From assembly GCA_964625745.1 (NCBI GenBank), contig CAZVCJ010000005.1, positions 6,514 through 67,100 of the forward strand: 60,587 nucleotides of DNA. Direction: 5' to 3'. The stretch comes from an uncultured Anaerolineae bacterium (GTDB lineage Bacteria > Chloroflexota > Anaerolineae > VGOG01). Position numbers and translations under genes: made by a program. The notes below the pieces were generated by a model. It ran no database searches, had not been told where the DNA came from, and saw only the letters and a program-made list of their open reading frames with translations. This document shows, one piece after another, positions 3,640 to 32,602 of the stretch. Within the stretch, counting starts at the first letter, position 1. Each line of letters opens with the position of its first letter.

Positions 3640-3743
3640 ATTCCCTCTAGCAGCCTGTCGGAGAGGGCATGCTCCCAGACTTCGGAAGTCTTCTCCGACA
3701 AGCTCCTGGCAGCGTAGTACACTTACTCTCCAAGGAGACTGCC

Positions 3744-6700
3744 ATGCCGATCACGCCCGAGATCATCCGTAGTCACCTGGCCGAGCTTCCCCGCCGTCGC
3801 TCCCTCGACGCCGCCCTGGAGCTCTTCGACGCCCTGGGCTACGGGTACGCCGACGAGCTGCCCCTCCCCACCCGCGACTGGCCTGCGGGCGTGCAAAGCC
3901 TGGTGAGCCAAAACGCCGAGTCCCCCATCTACCTGGCCCAGCACCGCGACTTCCACGTGGTCTACACCCACCTCACCACCGATGACCTGTTCCGTACTGT
4001 TGAACGGCCCATCGTGGAGCACACCCTGCACAAGCTGCATCCCTACGCCCTGTTCGTCTTCGCCAACCGCGACCTGACGCTGTGGGATTTCGTCAACGTG
4101 AAGTACGCGGCCGAGGACGGCGCCCGCCCCTTCGACCAGGCTCAGGGCAGGCGCCGCACCATCCGCCGCATCCACGTGGGGCCGACGGAGCGGCTGCACA
4201 CCGCCGCCCAGCGCGTGGCCCTGCTGGCCGTGCCCGCTCCCGACACCAGCGCCCTCGAACTGCAAAGCCGCCACGACCAGGCTTTCGACGTCGAAGAGGT
4301 CACCAGGCAGTTCTACCGCGACTACGTGGGGGTATTCGACGCGCTGTGCAAGGACATCGCCCGGCGCAATCCCCACTGCCCGGCCGAGATCGAGGCCCAG
4401 CAACTCCTCGACCGCCTGCTGTTCCTCTACTTCATCCAGAAGAAAGGCTGGCTCGACGGCCAACTCGACTATCTCTACCAGCACTTCCAGGCCCACTACC
4501 GGGCCGATCCAGACGGCACCAGCTTCTACGGCGATTTCCTCTTCCCCCTGTTCGTGGCCCTGTCCAACGAGGGCGCGGCCTTCCCCAGCCTGGGCGACGT
4601 CCCCTTCCTCAACGGCGGCCTGTTCGAGGTATCTGCTGACACGCCCCTGGCCGATCAACTCGTCGTGGGCAACGCGGTCTTCCATTCCGTATTCGATGAC
4701 CTGCTGGAGCGCTACAACTTCACCGTGCGTGAGGACACCCCGCTGGACGTGGAGGTGGCCATTGATCCGGAGATGCTGGGCCAGATCTTCGAGAACCTGG
4801 TGTTGGGTCTGGAGCGGGGCGAAGACCGCCGCAAGGCCACCGGCTCCTACTACACCCCCCGCGTCATCGTCCACTTCATGTGCCGCCAGGCCCTCAAAGA
4901 ATGTCTGGCCGCCGAGAGCGGCCTCGATCCCGCCCGCCTGGAAGCGCTGATGGACGTCGGCCCGGCCGAGCAGTTGACGCCAGAAGAGGTGGCTGAGCTG
5001 GGCGAGACGATCACCGAGCCGCAAGCTCGCCTGTTGCGCGGGTTGGTGGAGGGAGCGCGGGTGCTCGATCCCGCCGTGGGGTCGGGCGCTTTCCTGGTGG
5101 GGATGCTCTACCAGATGGTGGCCCTGACCAGGCTGCTGGACGTGCGGCTGCACGGTCAGAAGCGGGTGCAGCGTCGCAACTACGACTACGACCTCAAGCG
5201 GGGCTTCATCGAGCGCAACCTGTACGGGGTGGACATCCAGTCCGAGGCAGTGCGCATCTGCGAGCTGCGGCTGTGGCTCAGCCTGATGGTGGACTACGAG
5301 CGGCGGGCTGGCGAAGCAGTGCCCACCCTGCCCAACCTGAGCTACCGCGTGCGGGTGGGCGACAGCCTGATCGAGCGGCTGTTTGGCGAGCCGGTGCAAC
5401 TGGACGAGCTGGCTGACGACGCCGTGGCCCGCCAACTGATTGACCGCATCCAGACCGAGAAGCGAGGCTATTTCCAAGAGCCCAACCTGTGGGAGAAACA
5501 GCGGCGCGAGCTGCGCATCCTGGGGCTACTGTGCGAGCTGGCGGCCAAACTGGTGGGAGCCAAGCGAGGCGCCGTGCTGACCCAGATGTCGGCGCAGGTG
5601 CCCTCAATGGGTGACGAGTTTTTGTCCAGGGAGCATCGCAAACTGAAAGAAGCGTTTGAGGCGGAGCTGACCCGCTACGCCGGTCTGATGGAACAGGTGA
5701 AGGGAGTGTACGACCAGGTGCGGGCCATGCAGAATGGCGAAGTGGGGGACGTGGGCGCCCTCCGCGCCCAACTGGGGCTGTCCTTCTTATGGCGGCTGGA
5801 CTTTGCCGAGGTCTTCGCCGACAAGGGTGGGTTTGACGTGGTGATCGCCAATCCGCCGTACATCCGCCAGGAGCGGTTCTCTGACCAGAAGCCGCTGCTC
5901 AAAGCAGCCTTCACCGACGTGTACCACGGCGTGGCCGACCTGTACGTCTACTTCTATCGCCGGGGATTGGCCCTGGCCCGGCCAAAGGGTGTGCTGACCT
6001 TCATCAGCTCCAACAAGTTCTTCCGCGCCGGTTACGGTCAGGGGTTGCGCGCCTACCTGCGGGACAACACCTGGTTGAAGACCGTGATTGACTTTGGCGA
6101 CCTGCCCATCTTTGAGGCCACCACTTACCCCTGCGTGCTGGTAACTGCCAATCGTCGTCCTGGCGATGGCGAGGCGGCGGCGCAAGCGCTGAACGTGCGC
6201 AGCATGGCCACGTTGGAATACCTGGCCGACGCCGTGCAGCGCGAGGGTTGGCCCCAGCCGCAGCGAAGCCTGCGTCGTGACGGGTGGGCCTTTGAGCGGC
6301 CCGAAGTGTTGACCCTGTTGGAGAAGTTGCGCCGCAGCGGGACGCCGCTGGGGGAGTACATAGGTGGGCGGTTCTATCGGGGCATTGTAACCGGGCTGAA
6401 CGAAGCTTTTGTCATTGACCAAGCCACCCGGGACCGGCTCATGGCCGAGGATCCCCACAGTGCAGCGATCATCAAACCCTGGTTGCAAGGACGGGACATC
6501 AAACGATGGCGGGTGAATTGGCCACAGTTGTATTTGCTGTACGTAGGGTGGGATTGCAAGATCAAACGTTACCCTGCCGCCTTGGCACACCTCAAACGAT
6601 TCAAAAAGGCGTTAGCGAAAAGGCCAGAGGTCAAAGATGGACGCTTCCCTTGGTACGCCCTCAGTCGTTATGCTTCCCAGTACTACCTGGAGTTTGATAA

Positions 6701-7109
6701 ACCGAAGATAGTATGGCCTAATCTGTGTATTGAACCTCGCTTTGCTTTGGATCTTGAAAAGTGTTATGTGAGTGCCCCTGCCAATATTCTGCCTATCGCA
6801 CCGGATGAGTTATTCCTGGTAGGCATCCTGAATTCATCAGCGGTGTCTTGGTTTATGAAGCAAATCGCGGCTGAGCGAGCAGGTGGCTTTATCGAGTACA
6901 AACCCATCTACGTAACTCAGATACCCATCCCGGATACTACCCCAATCCAACGCGCCGCCATCGAAGCCCTGGTGCGCAAGCTGCTGGATGCGGAGGGCCA
7001 GGGGCCACAGGTGGCGGAGTGGGAGCGGGAGTTGAATGGGCTGGTGTATGAGTTGTATGGGTTGACGGAGGGGGACGTTGGGATGGTGGAGGGTTTGGAC
7101 CACGAATGA
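3744..7109 (+). CDS. large type IIG / PglX-like N6-adenine DNA methyltransferase with C-terminal TaqI-like specificity region
   Basis: Motifs GSYYTP, DPAVGSGAFLV (AdoMet motif I), VIANPPY (motif IV) and GIVTGLNEAFVI (TRD). Tail EWERELNGLVYELYGLTEGDV is typical of this family. ATG 3744 with AAGGAG RBS preferred over the track start 3669. I could not recognise a PD-(D/E)xK motif in the N-terminus. Confidence 0.85.
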   Translation: MPITPEIIRSHLAELPRRRSLDAALELFDALGYGYADELPLPTRDWPAGVQSLVSQNAESPIYLAQHRDFHVVYTHLTTDDLFRTVERPIVEHTLHKLHPYALFVFANRDLTLWDFVNVKYAAEDGARPFDQAQGRRRTIRRIHVGPTERLHTAAQRVALLAVPAPDTSALELQSRHDQAFDVEEVTRQFYRDYVGVFDALCKDIARRNPHCPAEIEAQQLLDRLLFLYFIQKKGWLDGQLDYLYQHFQAHYRADPDGTSFYGDFLFPLFVALSNEGAAFPSLGDVPFLNGGLFEVSADTPLADQLVVGNAVFHSVFDDLLERYNFTVREDTPLDVEVAIDPEMLGQIFENLVLGLERGEDRRKATGSYYTPRVIVHFMCRQALKECLAAESGLDPARLEALMDVGPAEQLTPEEVAELGETITEPQARLLRGLVEGARVLDPAVGSGAFLVGMLYQMVALTRLLDVRLHGQKRVQRRNYDYDLKRGFIERNLYGVDIQSEAVRICELRLWLSLMVDYERRAGEAVPTLPNLSYRVRVGDSLIERLFGEPVQLDELADDAVARQLIDRIQTEKRGYFQEPNLWEKQRRELRILGLLCELAAKLVGAKRGAVLTQMSAQVPSMGDEFLSREHRKLKEAFEAELTRYAGLMEQVKGVYDQVRAMQNGEVGDVGALRAQLGLSFLWRLDFAEVFADKGGFDVVIANPPYIRQERFSDQKPLLKAAFTDVYHGVADLYVYFYRRGLALARPKGVLTFISSNKFFRAGYGQGLRAYLRDNTWLKTVIDFGDLPIFEATTYPCVLVTANRRPGDGEAAAQALNVRSMATLEYLADAVQREGWPQPQRSLRRDGWAFERPEVLTLLEKLRRSGTPLGEYIGGRFYRGIVTGLNEAFVIDQATRDRLMAEDPHSAAIIKPWLQGRDIKRWRVNWPQLYLLYVGWDCKIKRYPAALAHLKRFKKALAKRPEVKDGRFPWYALSRYASQYYLEFDKPKIVWPNLCIEPRFALDLEKCYVSAPANILPIAPDELFLVGILNSSAVSWFMKQIAAERAGGFIEYKPIYVTQIPIPDTTPIQRAAIEALVRKLLDAEGQGPQVAEWERELNGLVYELYGLTEGDVGMVEGLDHE

Positions 7110-7272
7110 CACGAAAGGGGGCGAAAGGCACGAAAGGGCTTCGTGCTTTTCGTGGCTTTTCGCTTGTTTCGTGATCCAAAGCACCGACGCGGAGATTGAC
7201 GCGCTGGTGTATGAGTTGTATGCGTTGACGGAGGAGGAAGTGAACGTGGTGGAGGGAGTGAGGACCTCGTAG
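7040..7272 (+). repeat. tail-hairpin-tail module, copy 1 (methyltransferase 3' end, about 80-nt imperfect palindrome, second tail)
   Basis: Contains ...LVYELYGLTEGDVGMVEGLDHE*, then the palindrome 7097-7176 built from CACGAAAGG words and their complements, then a second tail AEIDALVYELYALTEEEVNVVEG. Core 7086-7238 is repeated at 9335-9490 and 10827-10985. Confidence 0.85.
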
Positions 7273-7403
7273 CCAAGGCGGACTCACTGCTAGCGCCCCT
7301 TGAGCAGGGAGACAAGTCAGAAGCCAAGCGCTTGGAAGCGGAAGTTGATCCTATGGTGCAGGCGCTATATGGAGGTAAGCAAGCCGAGTGAAAGGAGAAG
7401 CCC

Positions 7404-8360
7404 GTGTCTGAAGAGATTCACTGCGAAGTGCTTAGGATTACATGGCCCGACTGGTCGTCAGTTTCCGATGAATCGAAAGAGAACATCTGGCAAGTACTGA
7501 GCCAGCGGGTTGAGGATGGAGAAGCCCCCAGCCGCAGAGGCTTCGTGGGGGCAACCAGGTTTGAGGACATCATTGCTGGATTTTTCGCTCACGAGGGTCG
7601 CCGCTTGGGAGTTCAATATGATGAGGATTGGAACAAAGAAGATAGGGAAGCTGCAGAGTTTGAGCATCTATTCTTCGCTTTGGTTCTCAGTCAAGGACAA
7701 GTTATACTGCAGCGCAAGCGGATCGGCCGCGAGTTCGTCACGATCAATATGCGGACGATGCGACGCGAATTTTTCAATTTGCTTGGAGTGGTGTTCCAGC
7801 GTGCTGGCTTTCCCAGTGATCGCATCGTCAGGCAACCATTTCACGAGGAACGCCAAAAGGATTACCTCATCCAGATCTTCAACACTTATCCATCTACATT
7901 GATTAGAGTAAGTAACTTGTTGGGTCGGAAGGTGCCTGAAGATGTAAGACTATTCAATCCAGATATTGATAAGGATTTGATACTCAAGCAAGTGCTTAAC
8001 GGTGATTACCAGCATGTGGACGAGCTTGAAGCGAAGGCTGGGGAAACGGAGGACAGCGACCTACGGAACGCGACGTCGATTAGAGCTGCAATGCTCGCCG
8101 GAGACCCTAGAGAAGTACGAGCTATTGTAGAAGCGCAAGAGAGAACGTTCAGGAAGACCCAGCATGAACGGTTTACCATGCAGCTTGACACCGAAACGGG
8201 CGAGCAAGTCAAGGAGGCAGACCTGGACCGGGTGGTCAGAATCATACGAACAGAGTATTTCATTCCAGAGCACTTAGTGCGGTCACAGGTCAGTCTGGGT
8301 CCGTTGTTTGACTGGGCAAAAGAGAAGGATGATGCCAGCGATGACAGACAAAGTGGATGA
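7404..8360 (+). CDS. hypothetical cytosolic protein (318 aa), no recognisable domain
   Basis: GTG start preceded by AAAGGAG. AT-richer than surroundings. Its 3' end overlaps the start of the next ORF. Confidence 0.6.
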   Translation: MSEEIHCEVLRITWPDWSSVSDESKENIWQVLSQRVEDGEAPSRRGFVGATRFEDIIAGFFAHEGRRLGVQYDEDWNKEDREAAEFEHLFFALVLSQGQVILQRKRIGREFVTINMRTMRREFFNLLGVVFQRAGFPSDRIVRQPFHEERQKDYLIQIFNTYPSTLIRVSNLLGRKVPEDVRLFNPDIDKDLILKQVLNGDYQHVDELEAKAGETEDSDLRNATSIRAAMLAGDPREVRAIVEAQERTFRKTQHERFTMQLDTETGEQVKEADLDRVVRIIRTEYFIPEHLVRSQVSLGPLFDWAKEKDDASDDRQSG

Positions 8361-9300
8361 AATCAGCAAGAAACTTGTAGCGGGGCAGCCACTCGGCGAT
8401 GAAACGGATATTTCGCTCGAAGAGTTTATTGCTCTGTACCAGAAGATTGGTCAACAAGCAAACACGAAACAACGGGTTGATATCGTTCTTCTGAATGATC
8501 GCGCCTTTGTTCAATTCACAGATCTGCCACCAGGTAATGGTATAGTGTACATCAAATCAGAACGTCGCCTGACCCGTCAAGATTTCTCCCGGACGGTCGC
8601 TAATCCAGTATTTCACGGTGATGTCCTCGCCAGCACGATCAAAGAACAGATCAAGGAAGATCGCAGCAACATTTTGCTCTCTGGGGCTATTGGCCTACTC
8701 TTCACCGCTCTGCTTTTTTCACTGGGTAACTCGGTCGCTCCTAATTACCCGGCCTATTTGATCACCCCTAATAGCTTCCCAGCTACGGAACGAGCCATCA
8801 ACATGATAGTGAAGGTCAACGAGATGCTGCTGACGAGTGCAACTCTATTCCTAAGTGTTTTCCTGGTCTTCACAGTAGCTCAAAGCGCCAAGCTACAAGA
8901 GGACATTCGGCTATTCGACACCGGCCTGCTCCACAAGTTTGAGCACGACGATCGATTGGTCACTGTCATTGCCATTGTTAGTCTGATTTTGAGCGTACTG
9001 AATGTCACGCTGCTTGGCTTGCCAGTGTCCTTGGATGTCACTGCGTGGAATATGCTCGGATACACAGTCACACTTAACAAGCTTTCGCTGATAAGCCCTC
9101 TGATAACTGGTCTCACAATTGGAGCCCTGATCTACTGTTTTCTTGTCCTGTTGTATTATCTCAAGAGGATGATGCTTATCACCAATCGTGACATGAGTGC
9201 GAAAGTCTTGGAGAGAGCTCGGAGCCACCATCTCCACCATCAAGGAACTCTGCCAGCAAGTCGGGACGACGGATCAGCAGATCAAAGTGCTGGTGTATAA
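8329..9300 (+). CDS. hypothetical membrane protein: ~120-aa soluble N-domain plus four predicted TM helices
   Basis: Hydrophobic stretches ILLSGAIGLLFTALLFSLG, LLTSATLFLSVFLVFTVA, LVTVIAIVSLILSVLNVTLLGL and LISPLITGLTIGALIYCFLVLLYYL. Start ambiguous (8308 TTG, 8329/8332/8341 ATG). The last ~30 codons are read out of frame through a methyltransferase-tail remnant. Confidence 0.6.
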   Translation: MMPAMTDKVDEISKKLVAGQPLGDETDISLEEFIALYQKIGQQANTKQRVDIVLLNDRAFVQFTDLPPGNGIVYIKSERRLTRQDFSRTVANPVFHGDVLASTIKEQIKEDRSNILLSGAIGLLFTALLFSLGNSVAPNYPAYLITPNSFPATERAINMIVKVNEMLLTSATLFLSVFLVFTVAQSAKLQEDIRLFDTGLLHKFEHDDRLVTVIAIVSLILSVLNVTLLGLPVSLDVTAWNMLGYTVTLNKLSLISPLITGLTIGALIYCFLVLLYYLKRMMLITNRDMSAKVLERARSHHLHHQGTLPASRDDGSADQSAGV

Positions 9301-9515
9301 GATGTATGGGTTGACAGAGGAGGAGATTGGAGTGGTGGAGGGTTTGGACCACGAATGACACGAAAGGAGGCGAAAGGCGCGAAAGCGTTTCGTGCTTTTC
9401 GTGTTTTTTCGCTTGTTTCGTGATCCAAAGCACCGACGCGCGGAGATGGACGCGCTGGTGTATGAGTCGTATGGGTTGACTGAAGAAGAGATTGCTATTG
9501 TGAAGGGAGGGAGGA
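9255..9515 (+). repeat. tail-hairpin-tail module, copy 2
   Basis: Reads TDQQIKVLVYKMYGLTEEEIGVVEGLDHE*, then the palindrome, then AEMDALVYESYGLTEEEIAIVKGGRNE. The last tail supplies the GGGAGGGAGGA RBS and ATG of the next gene. Confidence 0.85.
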
Positions 9516-10682
9516 ATGAGTACCATTGACCTAGAAACTCTTTTGAATCTGGTCGGCACACTGGACGACAGCGACGACCCTAACAGCGCCCGCGCCCGCT
9601 TTCGGGCCTACCTGCAGGAAAGTACCCACAGCGTCGGCGACCTGCGGGCCTATGTGGACGCCGCTCTCTCCTCCAGCGGTGAGCAATACAACAAGGCACT
9701 GCAAGACCTAATCAATCACGCCGGTTACCTGCTGGGCTTTGAAGTGGAGTTCGGTCGCTATCGTGGCGTGCCGGGGCAAATTGGCTTCGATGGCCTGTGG
9801 CGTTCGCCCACCGGCCAGGCGCTAGTTGTGGAAGCTAAAACCACTGACGTGTACACCGTCAAGACGGCCACTCTTCTGGGTTACGTCAACGACCTGGTGT
9901 CTGCGGGCCAACTCGAGAGACCTGGTCAAGCCATCGGGCTTTACATCTACGGTCGGTTTGATGCTGCCACGAGCCAACTGGAGAAGGCCATCATCGCCGA
10001 GGGGCGTCAGGAACAACTGCGTGTGGCCAGCGTGGATGCGCTGTTGAACCTGCTAGAACTCAAGCAGGAATACGAATTGGAGCACGAGACAGTCTTTCAA
10101 CTCCTGCTCCCGTCTCCTGTCCGGGTGGATACCATTATCAATCTGATCTTCGACATCACCTCTCAGGAGCGACGAGCGGCGGTCGAAGAAGCGCCGGCTC
10201 TCGTACAGCCTGAACAGCCCACTGCAGAAAAGCAGATCAACTATTATCTGCTGCCAGCGGCTGATTCCGAGGATGGAATGCCCGTGTTGGAAAACCTGCA
10301 TCACTGGCTGGACCGAGGCATGTGGGGGTTGGGACAGCGCACCGGCTATCGTAAGTCTTTCCGCTCTGGCGACAGGCTGTGCTTCTACGCCGTACGCATC
10401 GGCGTCGTGGTCGAATGCACGGTCACTTCCCCTGCATTCGACCTGGACCGTAAGAAAAGCCCCAAGCCCCACCTGGAGGTGCCTTACGGCATCCGGCTGA
10501 AGGACGTGCGCTGGTTCGAGGACACCCCGATAGCTCTGACACCGGAGGTACGGGCCGAACTCAGCGCTTTCGAGGGACGTGACCTCAACAAGGGGTGGGC
10601 TTGGTTTGTGCAGGGCACAAGCAAGTTAACGGCAGAAGACTTTGAGCTTTTGACGGGGCTGAGGAAGCCTGGGCAGGGATAG
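9516..10682 (+). CDS. PD-(D/E)xK (Mrr-like) nuclease domain fused to a C-terminal EVE/PUA-like domain; candidate modification-dependent (type IV) restriction enzyme
   Basis: N-half carries FDGLW...ALVVEAKTT (D...ExK). C-half YYLLPA...WGLGQRTGYRKSFRSGDRLCFYAV...GVVVECTV follows the EVE/PUA-like pattern. Confidence 0.6.
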   Translation: MSTIDLETLLNLVGTLDDSDDPNSARARFRAYLQESTHSVGDLRAYVDAALSSSGEQYNKALQDLINHAGYLLGFEVEFGRYRGVPGQIGFDGLWRSPTGQALVVEAKTTDVYTVKTATLLGYVNDLVSAGQLERPGQAIGLYIYGRFDAATSQLEKAIIAEGRQEQLRVASVDALLNLLELKQEYELEHETVFQLLLPSPVRVDTIINLIFDITSQERRAAVEEAPALVQPEQPTAEKQINYYLLPAADSEDGMPVLENLHHWLDRGMWGLGQRTGYRKSFRSGDRLCFYAVRIGVVVECTVTSPAFDLDRKKSPKPHLEVPYGIRLKDVRWFEDTPIALTPEVRAELSAFEGRDLNKGWAWFVQGTSKLTAEDFELLTGLRKPGQG

Positions 10683-10699: not shown

Positions 10700-10765
10700 A
10701 ATGATCACACTGAAAGGGTTTCAGTGGTCTCAGGGGTTTCAGTGAAGTCAGTGGTTCAGCGGACG
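10700..10765. repeat. REP-like word cluster (CACTGAAA/TTTCAGTG, CAGTGGTCTCAG)
   Basis: cacactgaaagggtttcagtggtctcaggggtttcagtgaagtcagtggttcagcgg; a related copy is at 11767-11812. Confidence 0.6.
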
Positions 10766-10767
10766 TG

Positions 10768-10988
10768 CGGAGATTGACGCGCTGGTGCATGAGTTGTATG
10801 GGCTGACGGAGGAGGAGATTGGGACGGTGGAGGGTTTGAACCACGAATGACACGAAAGGAGGCGAAAGGCGCGAAAGGGTTTCGTGCTTTTCGTGGCTTT
10901 TCGCTTGCTTCGTGATCCAAAGCACCGACGCGCGGAGATTGACGCGCTGGTGTATGAGTTGTATGGGTTGATGGGGGAGGAGACTTGA
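10768..10988 (+). repeat. tail-hairpin-tail module, copy 3
   Basis: Reads AEIDALVHELYGLTEEEIGTVEGLNHE*, then the palindrome, then AEIDALVYELYGLMGEET*. Confidence 0.85.
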
Positions 10989-11003
10989 AGTGGGAGGGAG
11001 CCC

Positions 11004-11432
11004 CTAATCTATCTGATCAGGGAACTCTTTGGCAAAGAAGTCGCGAACGGTGAGGATGGGGATGCCTGCGTACCCGCCTAGGTCCAGGAGGTGATGGTCG
11101 CCAGACACAACGCAGACGGCACCAGCGACGGTGGCACAGCGGAGGAAAACGTCATCGTCTGGGTCGGCTACCACGATGGGATCTCCTTCTGGCACCTCAA
11201 AGACAGAAGCCAGGTTCAGAGCATAAGCGACCAGTTCCTCGGAGGCCAGTCCGAGTTGCTCCAGACGAGGTTGGAGTCGTTCGTAGGACAGCACTTCAGC
11301 CAGCTCGACGAGCATAGAAGGGGCTATGCACAACTCGACTTCACCCGCTTCGGCCAGACACAGCAATTTCCAGGGCATCCCCCGCCATAGCAAACCGGAA
11401 ACCCAGACGTTGGTGTCAATCACGATGCGCAC
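11004..11432 (-). CDS. PIN-domain toxin (TIGR00305-like)
   Basis: N-terminus RIVIDTNVWVSGLL; 142 aa; GTG start 4 nt after the antitoxin stop. Confidence 0.8.
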   Translation of the reverse strand: MRIVIDTNVWVSGLLWRGMPWKLLCLAEAGEVELCIAPSMLVELAEVLSYERLQPRLEQLGLASEELVAYALNLASVFEVPEGDPIVVADPDDDVFLRCATVAGAVCVVSGDHHLLDLGGYAGIPILTVRDFFAKEFPDQID

Positions 11433-11678: not shown

Positions 11679-11924
11679 CTTGGCCTCCTCATTCGGTAAG
11701 TAGACTGCTTTGGATAGTATACTATATCCACTACACGATGTCAATCTTGTGCTGGAGTGGGAAGGGGCCTCAGTGGTCTCAGAGGCTTCAGCGGGGTCAG
11801 TGGTTAAGGGGACGAGGCAACGGATGGGAGCGGATACCAGGGAGGACGCAAGTGACTTCCAGGAAAATAATCCCCCAAAAACACCGATGATTATTGCTGC
11901 CTGGGCTCTGGATCTTCGCCGACC

Positions 11925-12267: not shown

Positions 12268-15200
12268 ATGCCCCACGACATCATAGACAACCGCACGCGG
12301 GAGCTGGCTCCCGAAATCAACAACTTCCTGGCCGATAGCATCCGCGCCCACTTCGCCGTCGGCTATTTCTTCCTGTCGGGCTTTCAGGCCATCGCCGAGC
12401 ACATCCCCCACCTGGATCAACTGCGCCTGCTCATTGGCAACGTCACCAATCGCCAGACTATCGAGCAACTGGCCGAGGGCACCCACCACCTGGCGACCCT
12501 GCAACGGGCGGTGCGCCGCGAACGGATGGCCTCCGCCCAGGCTCCTCTCATCCGCGCTGAGACCGCCGACTCCATCCAGACCACCCTGGAGCTTCTGGAC
12601 CAGACCGACGACGCCCAGGCCCTGGTGCTCTCCCTGGCCGACCTCATCGCCCAGGGCAAGGTGCAGGTGAAGGTCTACACCCGCGGCCGCCTGCACGCCA
12701 AAGCCTACCTGTTCGACTTCGACCCGGCCCGCATCCGCGCCCAGACCGGCGCGGCCATCGTGGGCAGCTCCAACCTGTCGCTGGGCGGCGTCAGCCACAA
12801 CACGGAGCTCAACGTCCGCGTGTTCGGCGACGGCAACCACGCCGAGCTCTCCCGCTGGTTCAACGAGCTGTGGGACGAAGCCGAGGACTTCGACGCGGAC
12901 CTGATCCGCGAGCTGCGCCGCTCCTGGGCCGCCAGCCAGGTGCCCACCCCGGCAGGCCTCCGCCCTGTCAGCCCCCACGACGTCTACCTCAAGACCCTCT
13001 ACACCCTGGTCAAGGACCGGCTGGAGGGCCGCCGCGACACGGAGCTCCTGTGGGAAGCGGAGATGCCGGAGCTGGCCGACTTTCAGCGGGTGGCCGTCCG
13101 CCAGGCCGTCAAGATCCTGGATACCTACCACGGCGTCTTCGTGGCCGATGTGGTGGGCCTGGGCAAGACCTACATCGGCACCACCCTGCTCAAGCACTAC
13201 GCCCTCTATCGCGGCGCCCGCCCGCTGGTGGTCTGCCCTGCCTCGCTGGTGGAGATGTGGGAGTGGTTCATGGAACGCTACCAGATTGACGCCCCCGTCA
13301 TCTCCATGGGCCTCCTCAGCCAGAAGGGCCACGAGCGGATGCTGGCCGACAACTGGCGCTACCGTGACCGCGATCTGGTGCTGGTAGACGAGTCCCAGAA
13401 CTTTCGCTACGGTGATACCCAGCGCTACGCCGCCCTGCAATTGTTCACCCAGACCCGGCCCACCATCCTGCTGACCGCCACGCCCCGCGCCACCACCGCC
13501 TGGGACATCTACCACCAGATCAAGCTCTGGCATCCCCAGGATACCACCAGCATCCCCATTAACCCGCCCAACCTGCCGGAGTTCTTCCGCAAGGTGGAGC
13601 CGCGCAACGAGGAGCCGCCCAGCCGTGACCTGCAGGAGATCCTCAACCACGTCCTCATCCGCCGTACCCGCCACCACATCCGCACCTACTACCCCGACGC
13701 CCAGATCAACGGCCAGCCCCTGGTCTTCCCCGACCGCGAGTTGGAGACCATCACCTACAGCATCGAGGACACCTACCGTGCCCCGGGCGACACGGCGGGG
13801 GAGAGCCGCGTCTACCAGCGCCTGCACGACCTGATGGGCCAGCTCACCTACGCCCGCTATGCCCTGTTCGACTACGTTCTGCCCGAACACCAGCACGAGC
13901 CTAATTACGGGGAACTTCAACGAGCGGGCGCTGCCCTGCGCGGTCTGATGCGGGTCATGCTCTTCAAGCGTTTCGAGTCCAGCGTCCACGCCTTCCGCCA
14001 GACCGTCAACCGCCTGCGAAACCTGCAGCGCGCTTTCCAGGGCGCGCTGGACCGCGACCTGGTGCCCGCTGGCGACGAGGCCACTGACATCCTCTACAAG
14101 TCCGACCTGGACGACGAAGCCACTCTGTACCAGGCCCTGGAGAAAGCCAGCATCCGCTACCCCATCAGCGACTTCGACGTGCCCAAACTCCAGGGCGCCC
14201 TGGACACCGACATCGCTCTCCTGGACGAAATGGCCCGCCTGGTGGAGCCCATCGGCCCCCAGGAGGACAACAAACTCCAGCAGCTCATGGCCCTGATGGC
14301 CGGGAGCCGCACCCTGCCCGGCGATCGTTCGGCTGAGCGCTCACGACGAAGCCTGCTCCACGGCAAGGTACTCATCTTCACCCAGTACGCCGACACTGCC
14401 CACTACCTCTACGACAACCTGAGGCCCCTGGGCCGCATCCGCGCCGTGGAGAGCGGCACCACCGACCTGGCCCGCGTCATCCTGCGCTTCGCTCCCAAGG
14501 CCAACAACTATCAGCTCCAACCCGGCGACGAAGAGCTGCGCATCCTGGTCTCCACCGACGTCCTCAGCGAGGGCCTCAACCTGCAGGACGCCAACCACGT
14601 CATCAACTACGACCTGCACTGGAATCCCATCCGTCTCATCCAGCGCGTGGGCCGCGTGGACCGCATTGGCACCGAGCACGATACCATCTACGCCTACAAC
14701 TTCCTGCCTGAGACCGGCCTGGAGCGCGAGCTGGGCATCGAGCAGCGCCTGGAGCACCGCATCGCCGACATTCACCGCACCATCGGCGAGGATGCCCCTG
14801 TTCTACACAAGAGCGAGCAGATCAACGCCGAGGCCATGTACGCCATCTATCGGGGCGATCCCAGCGTTTTTGAAGACGAACCCGAGCCCGACATCTTCAA
14901 CCTGCTGGAGGCGGAAGAACTCATGCGCCAGCTCCAGCGCACCGACCCCGACCGCTTTCAGGAGATCGCCACCATGCCCGACGGCATCCGCAGCGCGCGT
15001 CAGGCGGTTGGCGAGCCTGGCCCTTCGGCGAGCTCAGGACAGGGCCTGTTCGTCTTCTGCCAGGCGGGCAGCTACCAGCGCCTCTACCTGGTTGACCAAG
15101 CGGGTCATCGCACCGCAGATCCTCAGCGGGCCATCCACGCCATCCGCTGCGAGGAAGACGAGCCTACCCTGGCGCTGCCTGCCGGCATCAACCAGCGCAT

Positions 15201-15576
15201 CGCCGCCGTCAAACGCGACTTCGACGCCGAGGTTCGCGCCCGTGAGGCCGAGATACGCCACAGAGTAGGCACAGCCCTGGGTCGCGACTACGCCCTGGCG
15301 GAGCTGCGCCTCATCTTCGATGCCGAAGAGGACCCGGAGGAAAAAGCTCGTCTAACCCTCCTGTCCGAGATTCTCACCACTGTCCCATTGACCGCCCGCG
15401 CCCATCGTGAGCTCAACAACCTGCGTCGCAGCAGGATCACCGGCCTGGCCTTGATCGAGCAACTCCTGCGCATCGTCCGTGACTACAACCTGGAGGAGGC
15501 CCACCATATCATCGCCGACCGGGCTGAGGAAGCACCGCTGATCCCACGTATTGTTTGTAGTGAGGCGCTGTTGTAG
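12268..15576 (+). CDS. PLD-family (single HKD) nuclease domain fused to an SNF2-family helicase
   Basis: N-domain RLHAKAYLF...IVGSSNLSLGG (HKD motif). Helicase motifs DVVGLGKT (I), LVLVDESQNFR (II), ILLTATP (III), LSEGLNLQ (V) and QRVGRVDRIG (VI). Confidence 0.85.
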   Translation: MPHDIIDNRTRELAPEINNFLADSIRAHFAVGYFFLSGFQAIAEHIPHLDQLRLLIGNVTNRQTIEQLAEGTHHLATLQRAVRRERMASAQAPLIRAETADSIQTTLELLDQTDDAQALVLSLADLIAQGKVQVKVYTRGRLHAKAYLFDFDPARIRAQTGAAIVGSSNLSLGGVSHNTELNVRVFGDGNHAELSRWFNELWDEAEDFDADLIRELRRSWAASQVPTPAGLRPVSPHDVYLKTLYTLVKDRLEGRRDTELLWEAEMPELADFQRVAVRQAVKILDTYHGVFVADVVGLGKTYIGTTLLKHYALYRGARPLVVCPASLVEMWEWFMERYQIDAPVISMGLLSQKGHERMLADNWRYRDRDLVLVDESQNFRYGDTQRYAALQLFTQTRPTILLTATPRATTAWDIYHQIKLWHPQDTTSIPINPPNLPEFFRKVEPRNEEPPSRDLQEILNHVLIRRTRHHIRTYYPDAQINGQPLVFPDRELETITYSIEDTYRAPGDTAGESRVYQRLHDLMGQLTYARYALFDYVLPEHQHEPNYGELQRAGAALRGLMRVMLFKRFESSVHAFRQTVNRLRNLQRAFQGALDRDLVPAGDEATDILYKSDLDDEATLYQALEKASIRYPISDFDVPKLQGALDTDIALLDEMARLVEPIGPQEDNKLQQLMALMAGSRTLPGDRSAERSRRSLLHGKVLIFTQYADTAHYLYDNLRPLGRIRAVESGTTDLARVILRFAPKANNYQLQPGDEELRILVSTDVLSEGLNLQDANHVINYDLHWNPIRLIQRVGRVDRIGTEHDTIYAYNFLPETGLERELGIEQRLEHRIADIHRTIGEDAPVLHKSEQINAEAMYAIYRGDPSVFEDEPEPDIFNLLEAEELMRQLQRTDPDRFQEIATMPDGIRSARQAVGEPGPSASSGQGLFVFCQAGSYQRLYLVDQAGHRTADPQRAIHAIRCEEDEPTLALPAGINQRIAAVKRDFDAEVRAREAEIRHRVGTALGRDYALAELRLIFDAEEDPEEKARLTLLSEILTTVPLTARAHRELNNLRRSRITGLALIEQLLRIVRDYNLEEAHHIIADRAEEAPLIPRIVCSEALL

Positions 15577-18768: not shown

Positions 18769-19653
18769 TCAAGTAACCTCGAAGAAGAGTTTGCCAGTCC
18801 ACTCTCCGTCACAATACACCCCGACTGCGATTTTATCCCCTGGCTTGTAGGTTGCCGGGACGGTAGCCTCGATTTGGAGATTGGACCATGAGACAAGGCC
18901 ATCGGCTTGTGAACGGATAGTGCTGTCATTGAGCGAGACAAAATTCGCTCCCTGGTCATCGCCGAAGTTTTCCCCTAACAGAGTGATCGTGGTGCCGACC
19001 GGCCCCTTGAGTGGCAACATACTCTCGAGCTTGGGTTTCTTGAGAACGTCACGACTGACCAGTTTGTCGCCAACATACGATCCCGCGGATGCACCCATCA
19101 GGACGAGAAGGGCACCGTCTACGTCTGGCAGTGCAAGTGGCATGGTTGGGTCCAATACCCAGGCCTTGGCAGCGATGAACTTCACGACGCTAAGCAGGTA
19201 GACGCCGGCACCGATAAAGGTCCAGATGAGCATTTGCGTCTTGACGAGATCGCCCTGCTCCTTAGGATTGGTGGTCAGCCCGCCGCTTCTCTCTTCGACG
19301 AGACCTTGAGATTTGTACGAGACAGTCACACCTTTAGCGCCAGCAGCCGTAGCTACACTCAACCCCATCAGTACCAAAAGACGCACGGGAATACTTGGCA
19401 ACGAGGGGAGACCTGCCCCCGACTCAGATTCAAGAAAGAGGGTGCCAAAGACACTTGTGTAGGCGAACAAAGTGACCAAAGTCCACACCAGCGCCTGGAG
19501 TTTTGAAGCACTTAGGACTCCCTGCACTTGCCCGCCTACCGTGCTTTCAGAGATAGCAAGAGCCCAGGGCGCAACTTTTTTTCCCGTGACGACGTAGCTG
19601 AGAACCCAAAATACAAGCAGGGTCCCTACTCCAAATAGATATCCTGATGTCAT
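18769..19653 (-). CDS. multi-pass membrane protein with C-terminal IPT/TIG-like beta domain
   Basis: ATG 19653 with AGGAGG RBS (track start 19815 rejected). Several hydrophobic helices are followed by TITLLGENFGDDQG...LQIEATVP..YKPGDKIAVGVY. AT-richer DNA. Confidence 0.6.
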   Translation of the reverse strand: MTSGYLFGVGTLLVFWVLSYVVTGKKVAPWALAISESTVGGQVQGVLSASKLQALVWTLVTLFAYTSVFGTLFLESESGAGLPSLPSIPVRLLVLMGLSVATAAGAKGVTVSYKSQGLVEERSGGLTTNPKEQGDLVKTQMLIWTFIGAGVYLLSVVKFIAAKAWVLDPTMPLALPDVDGALLVLMGASAGSYVGDKLVSRDVLKKPKLESMLPLKGPVGTTITLLGENFGDDQGANFVSLNDSTIRSQADGLVSWSNLQIEATVPATYKPGDKIAVGVYCDGEWTGKLFFEVT

Positions 19654-19811
19654 TTTTGACCTCCTTTCTGAGATTGTACAATAGTGCGGAATCGCACTCT
19701 CTCCCGCAACGGCCGATAACTGCTGAGTATATGCAGCATTACGTATATCACTCATTTTTGGACGGATGTTTAGTACGAACTCTCCTGGAACTGCTTGGAC
19801 TCTTGTTGCCT

Positions 19812-20000
19812 TCATGTAAAAACAGCAAAAGCCAACCCCCTCCTGACCTGCGGAAAAGGTTGGCCCTCAATGTCTCATGCTCTCACCTCCTACATTGGCT
19901 ACCAGCTACATGAAAGCAGCGATGGCTAAGTGTCGGTCAATATCTACGTGCTATTGTAGCACACAACGACCCAAGCGTCAAATACAAACCGCGTCGCCAA
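19812..20000 (-). promoter_or_regulatory. promoter-leader module, copy A
   Basis: On the minus strand: TTGACG (19976-19981), N17 ending TGC, TACAAT (19953-19958), GGAGGTGA RBS, 3-codon ORF ATG AGA CAT TGA (19867-19878), then hairpin GCCAACC...GGTTGGC followed by TTTTGCTGTTTTT. About 85% identical to copy B. Confidence 0.55.
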
Positions 20001-20774: not shown

Positions 20775-20962
20775 CAGGCAAAAGGCATCAAAAGCCCCCT
20801 CCTCCTGACCTGCGAAAAAGGTCAGCCATCAATGTCTCATGCTTTCACCTCCTACATTGGCTTACCAGCTATATGGAGACAATGATGGCTAAGTGCCGGT
20901 CAGTATCTACATGCTATTGTAGCACACAACGGCTCAAGTGTCAAAGCAAACCGCGTTGCCAA
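20775..20962 (-). promoter_or_regulatory. promoter-leader module, copy B
   Basis: TTGACA (20939-20944), N17 ending TGC, TACAAT (20916-20921), the same GGAGGTGA-ATG AGA CAT TGA mini-ORF, then hairpin CTGACCTttttcgcAGGTCAG. Confidence 0.55.
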
Positions 20963-25446: not shown

Positions 25447-25577
25447 AGGGCATCACCTCGCTTCAATAGCGAGTATACCAGCAAACTGTAGTTTCGTCAA
25501 GATGGAAAGCTGCCCCGCCTTGAGCATTTCGCCATCTTGTGGTATCATATTGGAAGTTGGAAGCTGGAGGTTGGATT

Positions 25578-28127
25578 ATGATCCCGCTCAAACTTCAATT
25601 ACGCAATTTCATGTGTTACCGCGAGCTCGATTCTCTGGATTTCTCGGGCATCCACCTGGCTTGCCTGGCCGGGGACAACGGCCACGGCAAGTCGGCCCTG
25701 CTGGATGCGATGACCTGGGCGCTATGGGGCAAGGCCCGCGCCAAACACGACGACGAGCTGATCCACCTGGGCCAGACGGAGATGGAGGTGGAGTTTGAGT
25801 TCGCCCTCGGCGAGAACCGCTACCGGGTCATCCGCAAACGGGACAGCCATGGGCGGGGGCAAAGCTCCCTGGAGCTACAGGTGCGCGACGACCACCTCTT
25901 TCGCCCCCTCACCGAGCCCACCATACGCCAGACCCAGGCCCGCATCAACAGGCTCCTGCGCATGGACTACGAGACCTTCATCAACTCGGCCTTCCTCCTG
26001 CAGGGACGCGCCGACGAGTTCACCACCAAGACCCCTGCCGAACGCAAGCGCGTCCTCGGCGAAATCCTGGGCCTCTCCCTCTACGATCAGTACGAAGAGC
26101 GAGCCAAGGAACGAGCTAAGGCCAGGGAAATAGAAGCCGAGCAAATCACAGCCCAGATCCGAGAGATGGAGCGGGAGCTGGAACGAAAGCCAGAATATGA
26201 GAGGGAGTTAAAACAGGCCCAGACTGACGTTGAGAGCTTGAACGCCACCTTGAGAGGGGCCGAGGAGGAGCTTCGCAAGCTGCGAGAGGAGTGGAAGGAA
26301 CTGGATCTTAAGCGAGTCCAGATCGAGGAGCTCTCGGCTCGGCTGGCCCAGGGAGAGCGAGAGCTGGCCGAAATCGGAGAGCAAATGGCGGCCTGCCAGG
26401 AACGCCTGGATGAGTACGAGGCGATCATACGTGACAAGGAGCCCATCGAGCGGGGCTTCGCCGCCCTGACCGCGGCCCGTCAATCCCACGAGGCGCTGAA
26501 CGAGAAGCTGGCAGAACTGGTGAAGCTGAACGAGCGCAAGGGCCAGTTGGAGGCAGCCATCGCCGAAGCCAGGCACGCCCTGAGCCTGGAGCAGCGCCTC
26601 TGTTCGGAAAAGGTGAGAGAGCTTTCGGCCCTGGCCCAAGAGCTGGAGTCACTGGGTACAAAGCTGCCCAGGGTCCGTGCCGAGCTGGAGCACCTGGTCC
26701 AGCAGGAGAGCGAACGGGAGGCCAGGCAGCAGGAGATAGGAGAGCTATCCAACGAGAAAGCCAGCCTCAAGACGCGAAACGAGCAGTTGAAGAGCGAAAT
26801 GGATTCCCTCGAGGAGAAAAACAAGCTTCTACAGGTTGCCGAAGCACAATGCCCTCTGTGCGGCCAGGGGCTTTCGGAAGAGGACAGAGTACGGCTCGTG
26901 GAGCAATTCTCCTCCGAGATGGCAGAGAGCGATGCCCTCTACCAGGCCAATCAAGCCCAAATCAAGGACCTGGCCGCCCGGAGCCAGACCCTGGTGCGAG
27001 AGATCGAGGCCATGGGGCAGGAGCTTGCGACCAAGGGGGCTTTGCAAAAGCAGGAGGCGACACTGGAGAAAAGCCTGGCCGAGGCAAAAGGAGCAGCCGA
27101 GGAGCTAGTCAAACGGCAGAAAAAACTGACCGAGTTGGACGAGCGCCTGACCAGCGGAAAATACGCCGAGGCTGAACAGGCCGAATTAGCGGGGCTTTTG
27201 GTCCAAATCGGGGAACTGGGCTACGATCCTGAGGCCCATCAGGAGGTGCGGCGAGACCTCGAAGTCCTCGGACGCTTCGAGGAAGACAAAGCCAGGCTGA
27301 AGGCCGCTCTGGCCCGCGTTGACGAAGAGCGAGCTAACCTGGAACGGCTACGCCATAATAAGGCCCGCTGGCAAGAGACCCTGGCCACTGACCTGGCCAA
27401 AAAAGAAGCTCTGTCTCAGGAATTGACCCGTTTGCCCGAGCTAGTCAGTCGGCTAGAGGGAAAGAGCAGGGAGGTGGACGGGCTGCGGACTAAGGAAGCC
27501 CGCGCTCGCCAGGTCCTGGGGGCGGCCAGGCAGAAGCTGGACTACTGCGAGTACCTGATCAGGGAGCGAGAGAAGAAGCTCAAGGAAAGACGCCGGGTGG
27601 CCGAGGAGAAGGCCATCTACGACGAGCTGAGGCTGGCCTTCGGCAAGAAGGGCCTGCAGGCCATGATCATCGAAAGCGCCATCCCTGAGATCGAGGACGA
27701 GGCCAACAGGCTTCTGGCGCGGATGACCGACGGACGCATGGACATGCGCTTCGAGACCCAACGCGAGACCCTCAAAGGCGACACCGTCGAGACGCTGGCC
27801 ATCAACATCTCCGACGAGCTGGGCACCCGCAGCTACGAGCTCTACAGCGGAGGGGAGAGCTTCCGCGTCAACTTCGCCATCCGCATCGCCCTGTCCAAGC
27901 TACTGGCCCGCCGCGCCGGGGCCAGGCTGCAAACCCTGGTCATTGACGAGGGCTTCGGCACCCAGGACACCCAGGGACGGGAGCGACTGGTGGAAGCCAT
28001 CAACTCCATTCGGGATGATTTCGAGAAGATCCTGGTCGTCACCCACATCGAGGAGCTGAAGGACGCCTTCCCCGTGCGCATTGACGTTTTCAAAACCCCC
28101 CAGGGCTCGCAGGTGGCGATCAACTGA
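25578..28127 (+). CDS. sbcC: SbcC/Rad50-family ATPase
   Basis: Walker A GDNGHGKSALLDA, long coiled coil with CPLCGQ zinc hook, signature LYSGGESFRV, Walker B LVIDEGFG. ATG 25578 after GGAGG. Confidence 0.88.
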   Translation: MIPLKLQLRNFMCYRELDSLDFSGIHLACLAGDNGHGKSALLDAMTWALWGKARAKHDDELIHLGQTEMEVEFEFALGENRYRVIRKRDSHGRGQSSLELQVRDDHLFRPLTEPTIRQTQARINRLLRMDYETFINSAFLLQGRADEFTTKTPAERKRVLGEILGLSLYDQYEERAKERAKAREIEAEQITAQIREMERELERKPEYERELKQAQTDVESLNATLRGAEEELRKLREEWKELDLKRVQIEELSARLAQGERELAEIGEQMAACQERLDEYEAIIRDKEPIERGFAALTAARQSHEALNEKLAELVKLNERKGQLEAAIAEARHALSLEQRLCSEKVRELSALAQELESLGTKLPRVRAELEHLVQQESEREARQQEIGELSNEKASLKTRNEQLKSEMDSLEEKNKLLQVAEAQCPLCGQGLSEEDRVRLVEQFSSEMAESDALYQANQAQIKDLAARSQTLVREIEAMGQELATKGALQKQEATLEKSLAEAKGAAEELVKRQKKLTELDERLTSGKYAEAEQAELAGLLVQIGELGYDPEAHQEVRRDLEVLGRFEEDKARLKAALARVDEERANLERLRHNKARWQETLATDLAKKEALSQELTRLPELVSRLEGKSREVDGLRTKEARARQVLGAARQKLDYCEYLIREREKKLKERRRVAEEKAIYDELRLAFGKKGLQAMIIESAIPEIEDEANRLLARMTDGRMDMRFETQRETLKGDTVETLAINISDELGTRSYELYSGGESFRVNFAIRIALSKLLARRAGARLQTLVIDEGFGTQDTQGRERLVEAINSIRDDFEKILVVTHIEELKDAFPVRIDVFKTPQGSQVAIN

Positions 28128-31777: not shown

Positions 31778-32602
31778 GTGGGTGAGATGCGATTCGTTAT
31801 TGCGCTTGGCGAGACCGCTTCGAAGCTGCACCCGGAAGCACAACTCTACATCGATAACCACCTTGCATCATATGGCGGTTGGCTTAGGAACAATCTCAAG
31901 CTGCGAGGGGAGATTCTTCACGATCCTGACGAACCGACGTTGGTTCAACGACTGAACGCTATTTCCGAATCAGAAGTTGAGGTGGTGACGACGTTGCAGG
32001 GTCGGTATTCATTATCCATGATCGGAAAGGTCGTAAACCACCTTCGAGATCGCGGCATAAACGTAGTCGTGACCATCGAGCCCATCCCTGAACACATACG
32101 AGAACTTGCTGGCGCACCTCGAATCAAGTACCACCAAATGCTGGATGCTTCCACACCAGAGTCCCGGCAACTCCGAGTATTCCTCTGTCATACTGCGGCA
32201 GACAAACCGTCGGTGCGCAAACTATACCAAAATATTCGCAAGCTCGGCGCGGAAGTGTGGTTCGACGAAAAGAGTCTGCTCCCCGGGCAAGACTGGAATG
32301 CCGAGATACAGGGAGCCATCCGCAACAGCGACCTCGTGCTCGTCTGTCTTTCGACTCGAGCAGTCAATAGAGTCGGCTATCTACAGAAGGAGATTCGGTA
32401 CGCGTTGGATTACGCAGACGAACAACCGGAGGGTTCCGTCTATGTCGTTCCAGTTAAACTCGAAGAGTGCGATGTCCCCAGCCGCTTAACACGGTGGCAA
32501 TGGGTGAATCTGTGGGAGGACGGCGGATTCGATAGGCTCGCTCAGGCACTACATGCTCGCGCAAGCGACTTAAGACGACGCTCAACGAATGGAGGTGCCT
32601 AA
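31778..32602 (+). CDS. TIR-domain protein with unknown ~135-aa N-terminal domain
   Basis: RVFLCHTAADKPSVRKLYQNIRKLGAEVWFDEKSLLPGQDW..I..AIRNSDLVLVCLS....RVGYLQKEIRYAL is a bacterial TIR_2 pattern including the conserved Glu. Start GTG 31778 or ATG 31787. Confidence 0.8.
   Translation: MGEMRFVIALGETASKLHPEAQLYIDNHLASYGGWLRNNLKLRGEILHDPDEPTLVQRLNAISESEVEVVTTLQGRYSLSMIGKVVNHLRDRGINVVVTIEPIPEHIRELAGAPRIKYHQMLDASTPESRQLRVFLCHTAADKPSVRKLYQNIRKLGAEVWFDEKSLLPGQDWNAEIQGAIRNSDLVLVCLSTRAVNRVGYLQKEIRYALDYADEQPEGSVYVVPVKLEECDVPSRLTRWQWVNLWEDGGFDRLAQALHARASDLRRRSTNGGA

Follow-up and report, generated by a model that had tools for sequence, protein, structure and literature searches.

The A-B gene pair and its products

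The window analyzed here is a stretch of 60,587 nucleotides (nt) from an uncultured Anaerolineae bacterium of the phylum Chloroflexota (contig CAZVCJ010000005.1, positions 6,514–67,100). In its first part, behind a Type IIG restriction gene, lie two overlapping genes, here called A and B, which encode a soluble protein and a membrane protein. Their pairing, their neighborhoods, and the repeats that border them suggest that A-B is an autonomous two-gene cassette for abortive-infection defense against phages, resembling lambda RexA/RexB in architecture and made of new protein families. We hold this reading with about even confidence.

The open reading frame (ORF) of B is open over 8308–9300. Its likely start is the ATG at 8341, which an independent gene caller also picked for P0014, a protein of 319 amino acids (aa) that is 100% identical to B; the ATGs at 8329 and 8332 are also possible. 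The two genes overlap by 20–32 nt in the window, and in homologous loci they overlap (by up to 20 nt) or abut (with a gap of at most 21 nt). The final ∼20 codons of B run, in a different frame, into the repeat that lies downstream. The G+C content of A+B is 0.49, against 0.60 in the 5 kb on each side, and this deficit of ∼10 points relative to the flanks recurs in all homologous loci. Measured against orthologues in loci L018, L007, and L001, the ratio of nonsynonymous to synonymous substitution rates (dN/dS) is 0.07–0.16 for A and 0.10–0.23 for B. Because dN/dS thus lies between 0.07 and 0.23 and because family profiles match relatives of A and B at E values down to 1e-150, A and B are real genes under purifying selection and not chance ORFs.

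A first-pass annotation of this DNA had placed the ORFs correctly, with A at 7404–8360 and B ending at 9300. The gene overlap that it reported near 8329–8360, the AT-richness relative to the flanks, and the tail modules bounding the pair, which are 228-nt direct repeats on both sides, were likewise borne out. It had also matched the pair to none of the named defense systems, in agreement with PADLOC, which gives no component family, and the outcome that it considered fatal to a defense role, a match to a metabolic or transport family, did not arise for either protein.

Indeed, neither A nor B matched any family in Pfam, PADLOC, PHROGs, or NCBIfam, and the same holds for distant relatives of A. 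Even at E ≤ 10, neither A nor any of 14 close relatives had a Pfam match. With the thresholds used, PADLOC-DB v2 assigned no family to A, B, or any of ten distant relatives of A, the sole stray match being PDC-S70 at E 0.02. Searches of PDB sequences with A and B, both as single sequences and as profiles, produced only noise, and hmmsearch did not retrieve the RdgC entry 2OWL. Judged from sequence, A and B are two new protein families.

Protein A is acidic and lacks any hydrophobic segment; its isoelectric point (pI) is 5.1, and the median of its family is 5.4. Only 13 close relatives turned up when 5.8 billion proteins were searched by word index, and an exhaustive profile search extended the family to at least 144 representatives at 50% identity, nearly all of them 290–330 aa long and a few reaching ∼405 aa through an N-terminal extension. 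Across 91 family members, N185-P186 are the only near-invariant positions. Four residues that look motif-like in close homologues (E64, D73, E87, and Q103) are conserved in only 62–69% of these members. Since only N185-P186 are near-invariant and no catalytic constellation is conserved, A is unlikely to be an enzyme, and its conservation pattern would fit a binding or sensor protein. A PD-(D/E)xK nuclease, which the sequence YD...EFEH...LQxK of close homologues had brought to mind, was rejected: E64 is Q in 26 of the 91 members, and D73 is present in only 63%. Toward its C terminus, A carries a conserved LGPLF motif.

A structural model of A was built with AlphaFold2 (AF2) on a 14-sequence alignment. 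Its best PDB fold match is Escherichia coli RdgC (2owl_B; E 4e-3, probability 0.99). In BFVD, the best fold matches are four uncharacterized phage proteins of 277–322 aa (E 1.5e-6 to 2.4e-5), followed by phage "recombination-associated" RdgC-like proteins at E 0.017 and 0.05. On this modeled evidence, A may possibly have an RdgC/RexA-type fold and could be a DNA clamp.

Protein B, for which 20 close relatives were found among the 5.8 billion proteins, is modeled with confidence, its predicted local distance difference test score (pLDDT) being 84 and its predicted template modeling score (pTM) 0.70. A soluble N-terminal alpha/beta domain (residues 1 to about 95–105) is followed by four long transmembrane (TM) helices, with a short beta-hairpin between TM3 and TM4. 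Hydropathy and the positive-inside distribution of charges place the N-terminal domain, the TM2-TM3 loop, and the C terminus in the cytoplasm (N-in/C-in). Most residues that are invariant in the family fall within this loop, KLQEDxRLFDxGLLHKFERDD. No PDB fold match to B was found with Foldseek (best E 0.55). The first-pass annotation had described B as a small four-TM protein; the four helices stand, but "small" does not, since the soluble domain of ∼105 aa precedes them. It had noticed neither this extra cytosolic domain nor the weak RdgC/RexA-type fold signal of A.

Tail repeats and the cassette array

The pair is bracketed by a direct repeat. Three copies of a 228-nt sequence (7030–7257, 9279–9506, and 10771–10998) enclose A+B and the next ORF, C (Table 1). 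Each copy is composed of a tail (tail-a), a hairpin of ∼100 nt, and a second tail copy (tail-b). The tail itself corresponds to the final ∼75 nt of the Type IIG gene and encodes ...LVYELYGLTEEEIGxVEGLDHE and the stop codon (AEIDALVYELYGLTEEEIxxVEG across copies), and a profile of it finds, with nhmmer, six co-oriented copies in the window. The first-pass annotation had missed where its tail modules come from: they repeat, in direct orientation, the 3′ end of the Type IIG gene, and they mark the pair as a discrete cassette in an array. A further, decayed tail suspected at 7334–7362 was rejected, since it scored no better than shuffled sequences.

Table 1. Coordinates of the A-B pair, the tail repeats, and the genes bordering the array
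Feature	Position	Strand	Basis or remark
Gene A	7404–8360	+	ORF with GTG start, 318 aa; uncharacterized family, cytosolic
Ribosome-binding site AAGGAG	7392–7397	+	Read from sequence; 6 nt before the GTG of A
Gene B	8341–9300	+	ORF; membrane protein, 319 aa
Type IIG gene (Eco57I methylase + TaqI_C)	3669–7109	+	Pfam/PADLOC; its 3′ end supplies the repeat
Tail-a1, true 3′ end of the Type IIG gene	7025–7103	+	Tail profile; stop codon at 7107–7109
Hairpin 1, ∼100 nt, between tail-a1 and tail-b1	7083–7192	+	Terminator-like; coordinates transferred from the fold of copy 2
Tail-b1, left repeat of the A-B cassette	7187–7263	+	nhmmer E 1e-18; encodes AEIDALVYELYALTEEEVNVVEG
Tail-a2, right repeat of the A-B cassette	9273–9351	+	Begins at the end of B
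Hairpin 2, between tail-a2 and tail-b2	9332–9441	+	RNA fold −56.3 kcal/mol, z −6.0
Tail-b2, left repeat of cassette C	9437–9512	+	Tail profile
Cassette C, 388-aa protein	9516–10682	+	No detectable family
Third tail-hairpin-tail repeat, closing cassette C	10765–10998	+	Tails 10765–10843 and 10930–10998; hairpin 10824–10933
PLD(HKD)-SNF2 helicase gene	12268–15576	+	Far border of the array; same bracket in L001, L007, and L024

The hairpins are near-perfect, start within the last codons of tail-a, and are followed by a T-rich run; none has an Rfam match above noise. By these features they look like intrinsic terminators, and each could be a terminator, a mini-cassette, or an element resembling a miniature inverted-repeat transposable element (MITE). 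They are present in only some genomes: L007 and L018 have none, and one is found in L012 at 9834–9887. The tail is more constant. An equivalent stands directly after B in L007, L018, and L024, and in L012 and L024 extra tail copies separate other, unrelated cassettes. The copies at the Type IIG end and after B lie at 8965–9036 and 10968–11043 in L007, where 57 nt are 91% identical, and at 2021–2097 and 4104–4178 in L018.

A closely related genome gives a view of how these repeats behave. L017 represents a near-identical strain, with B 100% identical, and carries between B and C an extra 160-nt unit made of a tail and a CAGTG-rich spacer (10890–11100), at the place where the window has a hybrid tail (9240–9300). 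This difference indicates that tail copies recombine in nature. The direct-repeat boundaries, together with the G+C deficit of ∼10 points in every locus, mark A-B as a discrete, horizontally exchanged cassette that does not belong permanently to the flanking system.

Among the large ORFs scanned between 541 and 43967 of the window, we found no recombinase or integrase domain, a scan that does not exclude small ORFs or trans-acting enzymes. An integron proper was therefore rejected, there being no integrase among these ORFs and the repeat not being attC-like. A shufflon of target-recognition domains was also rejected, because the repeats have a direct and not an inverted orientation and the cassette products, instead of being TaqI_C domains, are unrelated proteins. 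The protein of cassette C, a further uncharacterized cargo of the array, matched nothing in Pfam, PADLOC, PHROGs, NCBIfam, or the PDB sequences.

Other features of the array were recorded along the way. A second direct repeat, of 54 nt, CAGTG-rich and 81% identical between its copies (10712–10765 and 11761–11814), surrounds the third tail repeat and a PIN_3 toxin gene (11004–11432, minus strand) with a small ORF upstream; sequence related to this repeat makes up the extra spacer of L017. The Type IIG and PLD-SNF2 genes have PADLOC matches to DrmMI, DrmD, and "HKD+Snf2" candidates, and no DrmA or DrmB homologue was found among the scanned ORFs between them. The two genes look like a two-gene restriction-modification-like system with an interior hotspot for cassettes. 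Farther along the window, amid housekeeping genes, lie genes for an SbcC/Rad50-like ATPase (25539–28127, plus strand) and a TIR_2 protein (31778–32602, plus strand). Downstream of an ORF with a TIG domain (18769–19815, minus strand), a pair of neighboring direct repeats, one of 65 nt (91% identity) and one of 83 nt (86%), occurs at 19836–19982 and 20798–20945, ∼960 nt apart.

Strict pairing in varied neighborhoods

In every recovered locus in which both sides are present, a homologue of A lies immediately upstream of a homologue of B. The loci tested were the window, L001–L010, L012–L015, L017–L022, L025, and L026. The pairing persists in the deep branches L013, L014, and L015, where A is ∼20–25% identical and B was found at E values of 2e-27, 2e-29, and 1e-10, respectively, and where B keeps its layout of an N-terminal domain and four TM helices. 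The first-pass annotation had proposed checking whether homologues of the two genes co-occur and are enriched near defense genes. Both points came out in its favor: the pairing is strict in all loci with both sides visible, and most of the informative contexts are restriction-modification or defense loci. Its reading of the layout as that of a sensor with a membrane-disrupting abortive-infection effector is thereby partly supported.

In at least four lineages, a Type IIG gene and a PLD-SNF2 gene bracket the pair. In the window and L017, A-B is followed by C, the PIN toxin-antitoxin genes, and PLD-SNF2, with housekeeping genes on the outer sides. In L001–L005, L020, and L021, two small ORFs separate the Type IIG gene from A-B, and GmrSD and two further ORFs precede PLD-SNF2. 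L007 has A-B directly behind the Type IIG gene, followed by small ORFs (including DUF2283 and DUF3800) and PLD-SNF2, with an HsdR gene nearby. In L012, from a metagenome-assembled genome (MAG) of the Anaerolineales, three genes, including one for an SMC-like ATPase, stand between the Type IIG gene and A-B. L024 shows B, further cassettes (including DUF5131), and PLD-SNF2. Other neighborhoods differ altogether: a BglII endonuclease, TumE, and PDDEXK_3 in L015; DUF4365 and a transposase in L022; and HSP70, UvrD, and a 1968-aa helicase in L006.

A distant A-B pair is embedded in an Hma locus, both on the P0045 contig and in L013. It sits between the HmaB methyltransferase and HmaC ATPase genes, with NACHT/iREase between HmaA and HmaB, so that the order on the P0045 contig reads SNF2-NOV_C (HmaA-like), NACHT/iREase, DUF1156 (HmaB), A-B, DUF499 (HmaC). 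The hma operon (hmaABC) is a published insertion hotspot for defense genes (PMC11232893).

These contexts raise the question of autonomy. Methyltransferase-containing systems make up most of them, the start of A overlaps the methyltransferase stop codon in L007 and in the Hma contig, and the region upstream of A showed no sigma-70-like promoter. Accordingly, A-B might be an accessory or guard of the restriction-modification-like system that embeds it (Type IIG plus PLD-SNF2, or Hma), either anchoring the restriction machinery to the membrane where DNA enters or serving as a second line once a phage inhibits restriction-modification, like PrrC in EcoprrI. However, the pair has unrelated partners (Type IIG/PLD-SNF2, Hma, BglII, HSP70-UvrD), L009 and L014 have no restriction-modification gene nearby, its direct-repeat borders and foreign G+C are like those of other, unrelated cassettes of the array, and in the window a strong terminator-like hairpin stands between the Type IIG gene and the pair. 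That the pair has cassette boundaries and occurs in such varied loci disfavors strict dependence on one restriction-modification system, and we regard a guard role as unlikely.

A selfish role would also fit a small mobile cassette of two genes with tight translational coupling and strict co-occurrence. In such an addiction module, of toxin-antitoxin type, the membrane toxin would be B, neutralized by A, and the module would stabilize the cassette or the array, in which a PIN toxin-antitoxin cassette is also found. Membrane-protein toxins are common. Nevertheless, both proteins are ∼320 aa long, far above typical toxin-antitoxin size, and A exceeds the usual antitoxin in both size and conservation, with what the model suggests is a structured two-domain fold. 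We consider this explanation quite improbable, and toxin-antitoxin and abortive-infection roles are in any case not mutually exclusive.

The family is, moreover, rare and patchy. Only 13–20 close clusters were found among the 5.8 billion proteins, and the 185,579 species genomes scanned contained only one related locus, in an Anaerolineales MAG. This distribution bears on whether A-B could have a cellular role outside defense, for instance in a stress response or in the membrane-linked handling of DNA, and merely hitch-hike in variable regions. L009 and L014 do lie amid metabolic genes, and RdgC itself is a housekeeping nucleoid or recombination protein. Because the pair is rare, its composition foreign, and its neighbors mostly restriction-modification or defense genes, and with cassette repeats flanking it, a housekeeping role is disfavored, and we judge a role outside defense to be very unlikely.

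Resemblance to Rex and what the array may mean

RexB is a four-TM inner-membrane protein that acts with RexA and is encoded immediately downstream of it. By its AF2 model and hydropathy, B is likewise a four-TM inner-membrane partner encoded immediately downstream of a soluble protein. A RexAB-type system of Pseudomonas putida was reportedly shown recently to cause membrane damage that is triggered by RexA and depends on RexB. In lambda RexAB, P. putida RexABpp, Sbash gp30/gp31, and CarolAnn gp44/gp43, a soluble protein of ∼300 aa is encoded directly upstream of a four-TM protein, as in A-B. The soluble partner is in each case without a catalytic motif, and the RdgC-type fold of RexA is possible in A; a sensor acting with a membrane-depolarizing effector is proposed for both. 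In RexAB-type systems, a DNA-binding protein like RexA is paired with an effector of four TM helices (PMC12894663), and a structural relationship of RexA to the RdgC entry that A matches has been published (PMC11077077).

The strict pairing, the restriction-modification and defense contexts, the cassette boundaries, the topology of B, and the conservation pattern and fold signal of A support the reading of A-B as a Rex-like defense pair. We infer a defense function, the roles of sensor and effector, an ability of A to bind DNA, and the formation of a pore by B. On this proposal, A would be a non-enzymatic cytosolic sensor of infection that binds, for example, phage DNA or replication intermediates. 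Once activated, A would engage the cytoplasmic face of B, formed by the N-terminal domain and the conserved TM2-TM3 loop. B would then oligomerize or open in the inner membrane and dissipate the membrane potential, and phage growth would stop. The pair travels as a low-G+C cassette whose insertion site is the 3′ end of a Type IIG gene, in an array that ends at the PLD-SNF2 gene.

Several observations weigh against this reading. The AF2 model of A is weak (pLDDT 62, pTM 0.46), and although its alignment to 2owl is full-length, with 324 aligned columns, the TM-scores are just 0.39–0.41 and come from that model of pLDDT 62; the RexA structure 8TWQ is absent from the top 50 PDB fold matches. No relationship to Rex is detectable in sequence. 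Neither Pfam RexA (PF15969) nor RexB is matched, and hhalign probabilities are ∼1% or less: ∼1% when the A profile of 91 sequences was compared with lambda RexA and with a RexA profile of 19 sequences. For A against RdgC they stay below 1% (A2 and A4 against E. coli RdgC, and A4 against a 7-sequence RdgC profile), and hhalign of B against RexB gave no homology. As a control, the accepted relationship between RexA and RdgC was also undetected by hhalign, so that the test has little power; the negative profile results for A with RexA and RdgC carry little weight because the same method misses this pair.

Differences in architecture and distribution point the same way. B, at ∼320 aa, has an extra cytosolic domain of ∼105 aa, whereas RexB has 144 aa, and A-B is chromosomal, in restriction-modification-like loci and not beside a CI-like prophage repressor. 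The five Rex-like systems described so far are all phage- or prophage-encoded (PMC12894663). In contrast, tblastn found no relative of A in 50,697 phage records, no relative of B was found in plasmids, and no relative of the pair was found in IMG/VR contigs; a phage or plasmid origin of A-B was rejected on these grounds. Around L009/L010 and L014, the pair has no recognizable defense neighbor, L009 and L014 lying among metabolic genes. Finally, distant relatives of A have other partners. In L029 (1421–3328), a 310-aa relative is followed by a non-B protein with two N-terminal TM helices, and in L027 (830–2751), a 412-aa relative with an N-terminal extension lies downstream of a gene of the STM3845 family (PF28093). 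Such alternative partners are also the pattern expected of a sensor-like component used with alternative effectors.

It is useful to contrast A-B with other known systems. RdgC (PDB 2OWL), a DNA-binding protein of E. coli that forms rings and is associated with recombination, is the best full-length fold match to A and is similar to it in length (303 vs. 318 aa) and pI (5.3 vs. 5.1). Yet it has no sequence or profile similarity to A (PF04381 is unmatched, and the TM-score of ∼0.4 comes from a low-confidence model), and its gene stands alone, unaccompanied by one for a membrane partner. Kiwa, like A-B, has two genes, encoding a four-TM protein (KwaA) and a soluble protein of ∼310 aa (KwaB, DUF4868). 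However, A-B has no PADLOC or Pfam match to KwaA, KwaB, or DUF4868, its gene order is reversed, with the soluble protein first, and B bears a large N-terminal domain.

Defense genes are also known to be embedded in restriction-modification-like operons, as are PrrC in the EcoprrI hsd locus and BrxU/GmrSD in BREX. A-B resembles these cases and the hmaABC hotspot in lying between a methyltransferase gene and a helicase, nuclease, or ATPase gene, with other embedded defense genes such as GmrSD alongside. A and B are nonetheless unrelated to the PrrC, BrxU, and GmrSD proteins, and here direct repeats of the 3′ end of the methyltransferase gene itself mark the limits of the insertions. We know of no description of such repeats at those hotspots.

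In its organization, the array is reminiscent of an integron. Co-oriented, promoter-poor cassettes each end in a conserved repeat, their content varying by genome and the number of repeats by strain. Unlike an integron, it shows no integrase among the large ORFs scanned, its tail is coding sequence (the C-terminal helix of the Type IIG protein) and not an attC palindrome, and a hairpin accompanies the tail in only some genomes. A broader scheme, which we offer as doubtful, would make the array a hitherto undescribed, integrase-less, integron-like platform, whose defense cassettes, each with a tail copy at its end, are gained, lost, and shuffled through recombination between these copies while the restriction gene stays intact. 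A-B would be a deeply diverged, chromosomal Rex-type cargo of this platform, its RdgC-fold sensor firing a new four-TM effector, possibly upon bypass of the restriction-modification system around it.

The tail-repeat cassette array behind Type IIG genes is the more unusual by-product of this analysis. Its cassette boundaries suggest a concrete route by which defense genes become embedded within restriction-modification operons. If the A-B pair is a defense system, two unannotated families would join the small set of systems that couple a soluble sensor to a membrane effector. The trigger of Rex itself is still unidentified after 70 years (PMC12894663). If the reading of A-B as a Rex-like pair is true, the Rex paradigm would reach beyond prophages to chromosomal defense islands of uncultured Chloroflexota-like bacteria.

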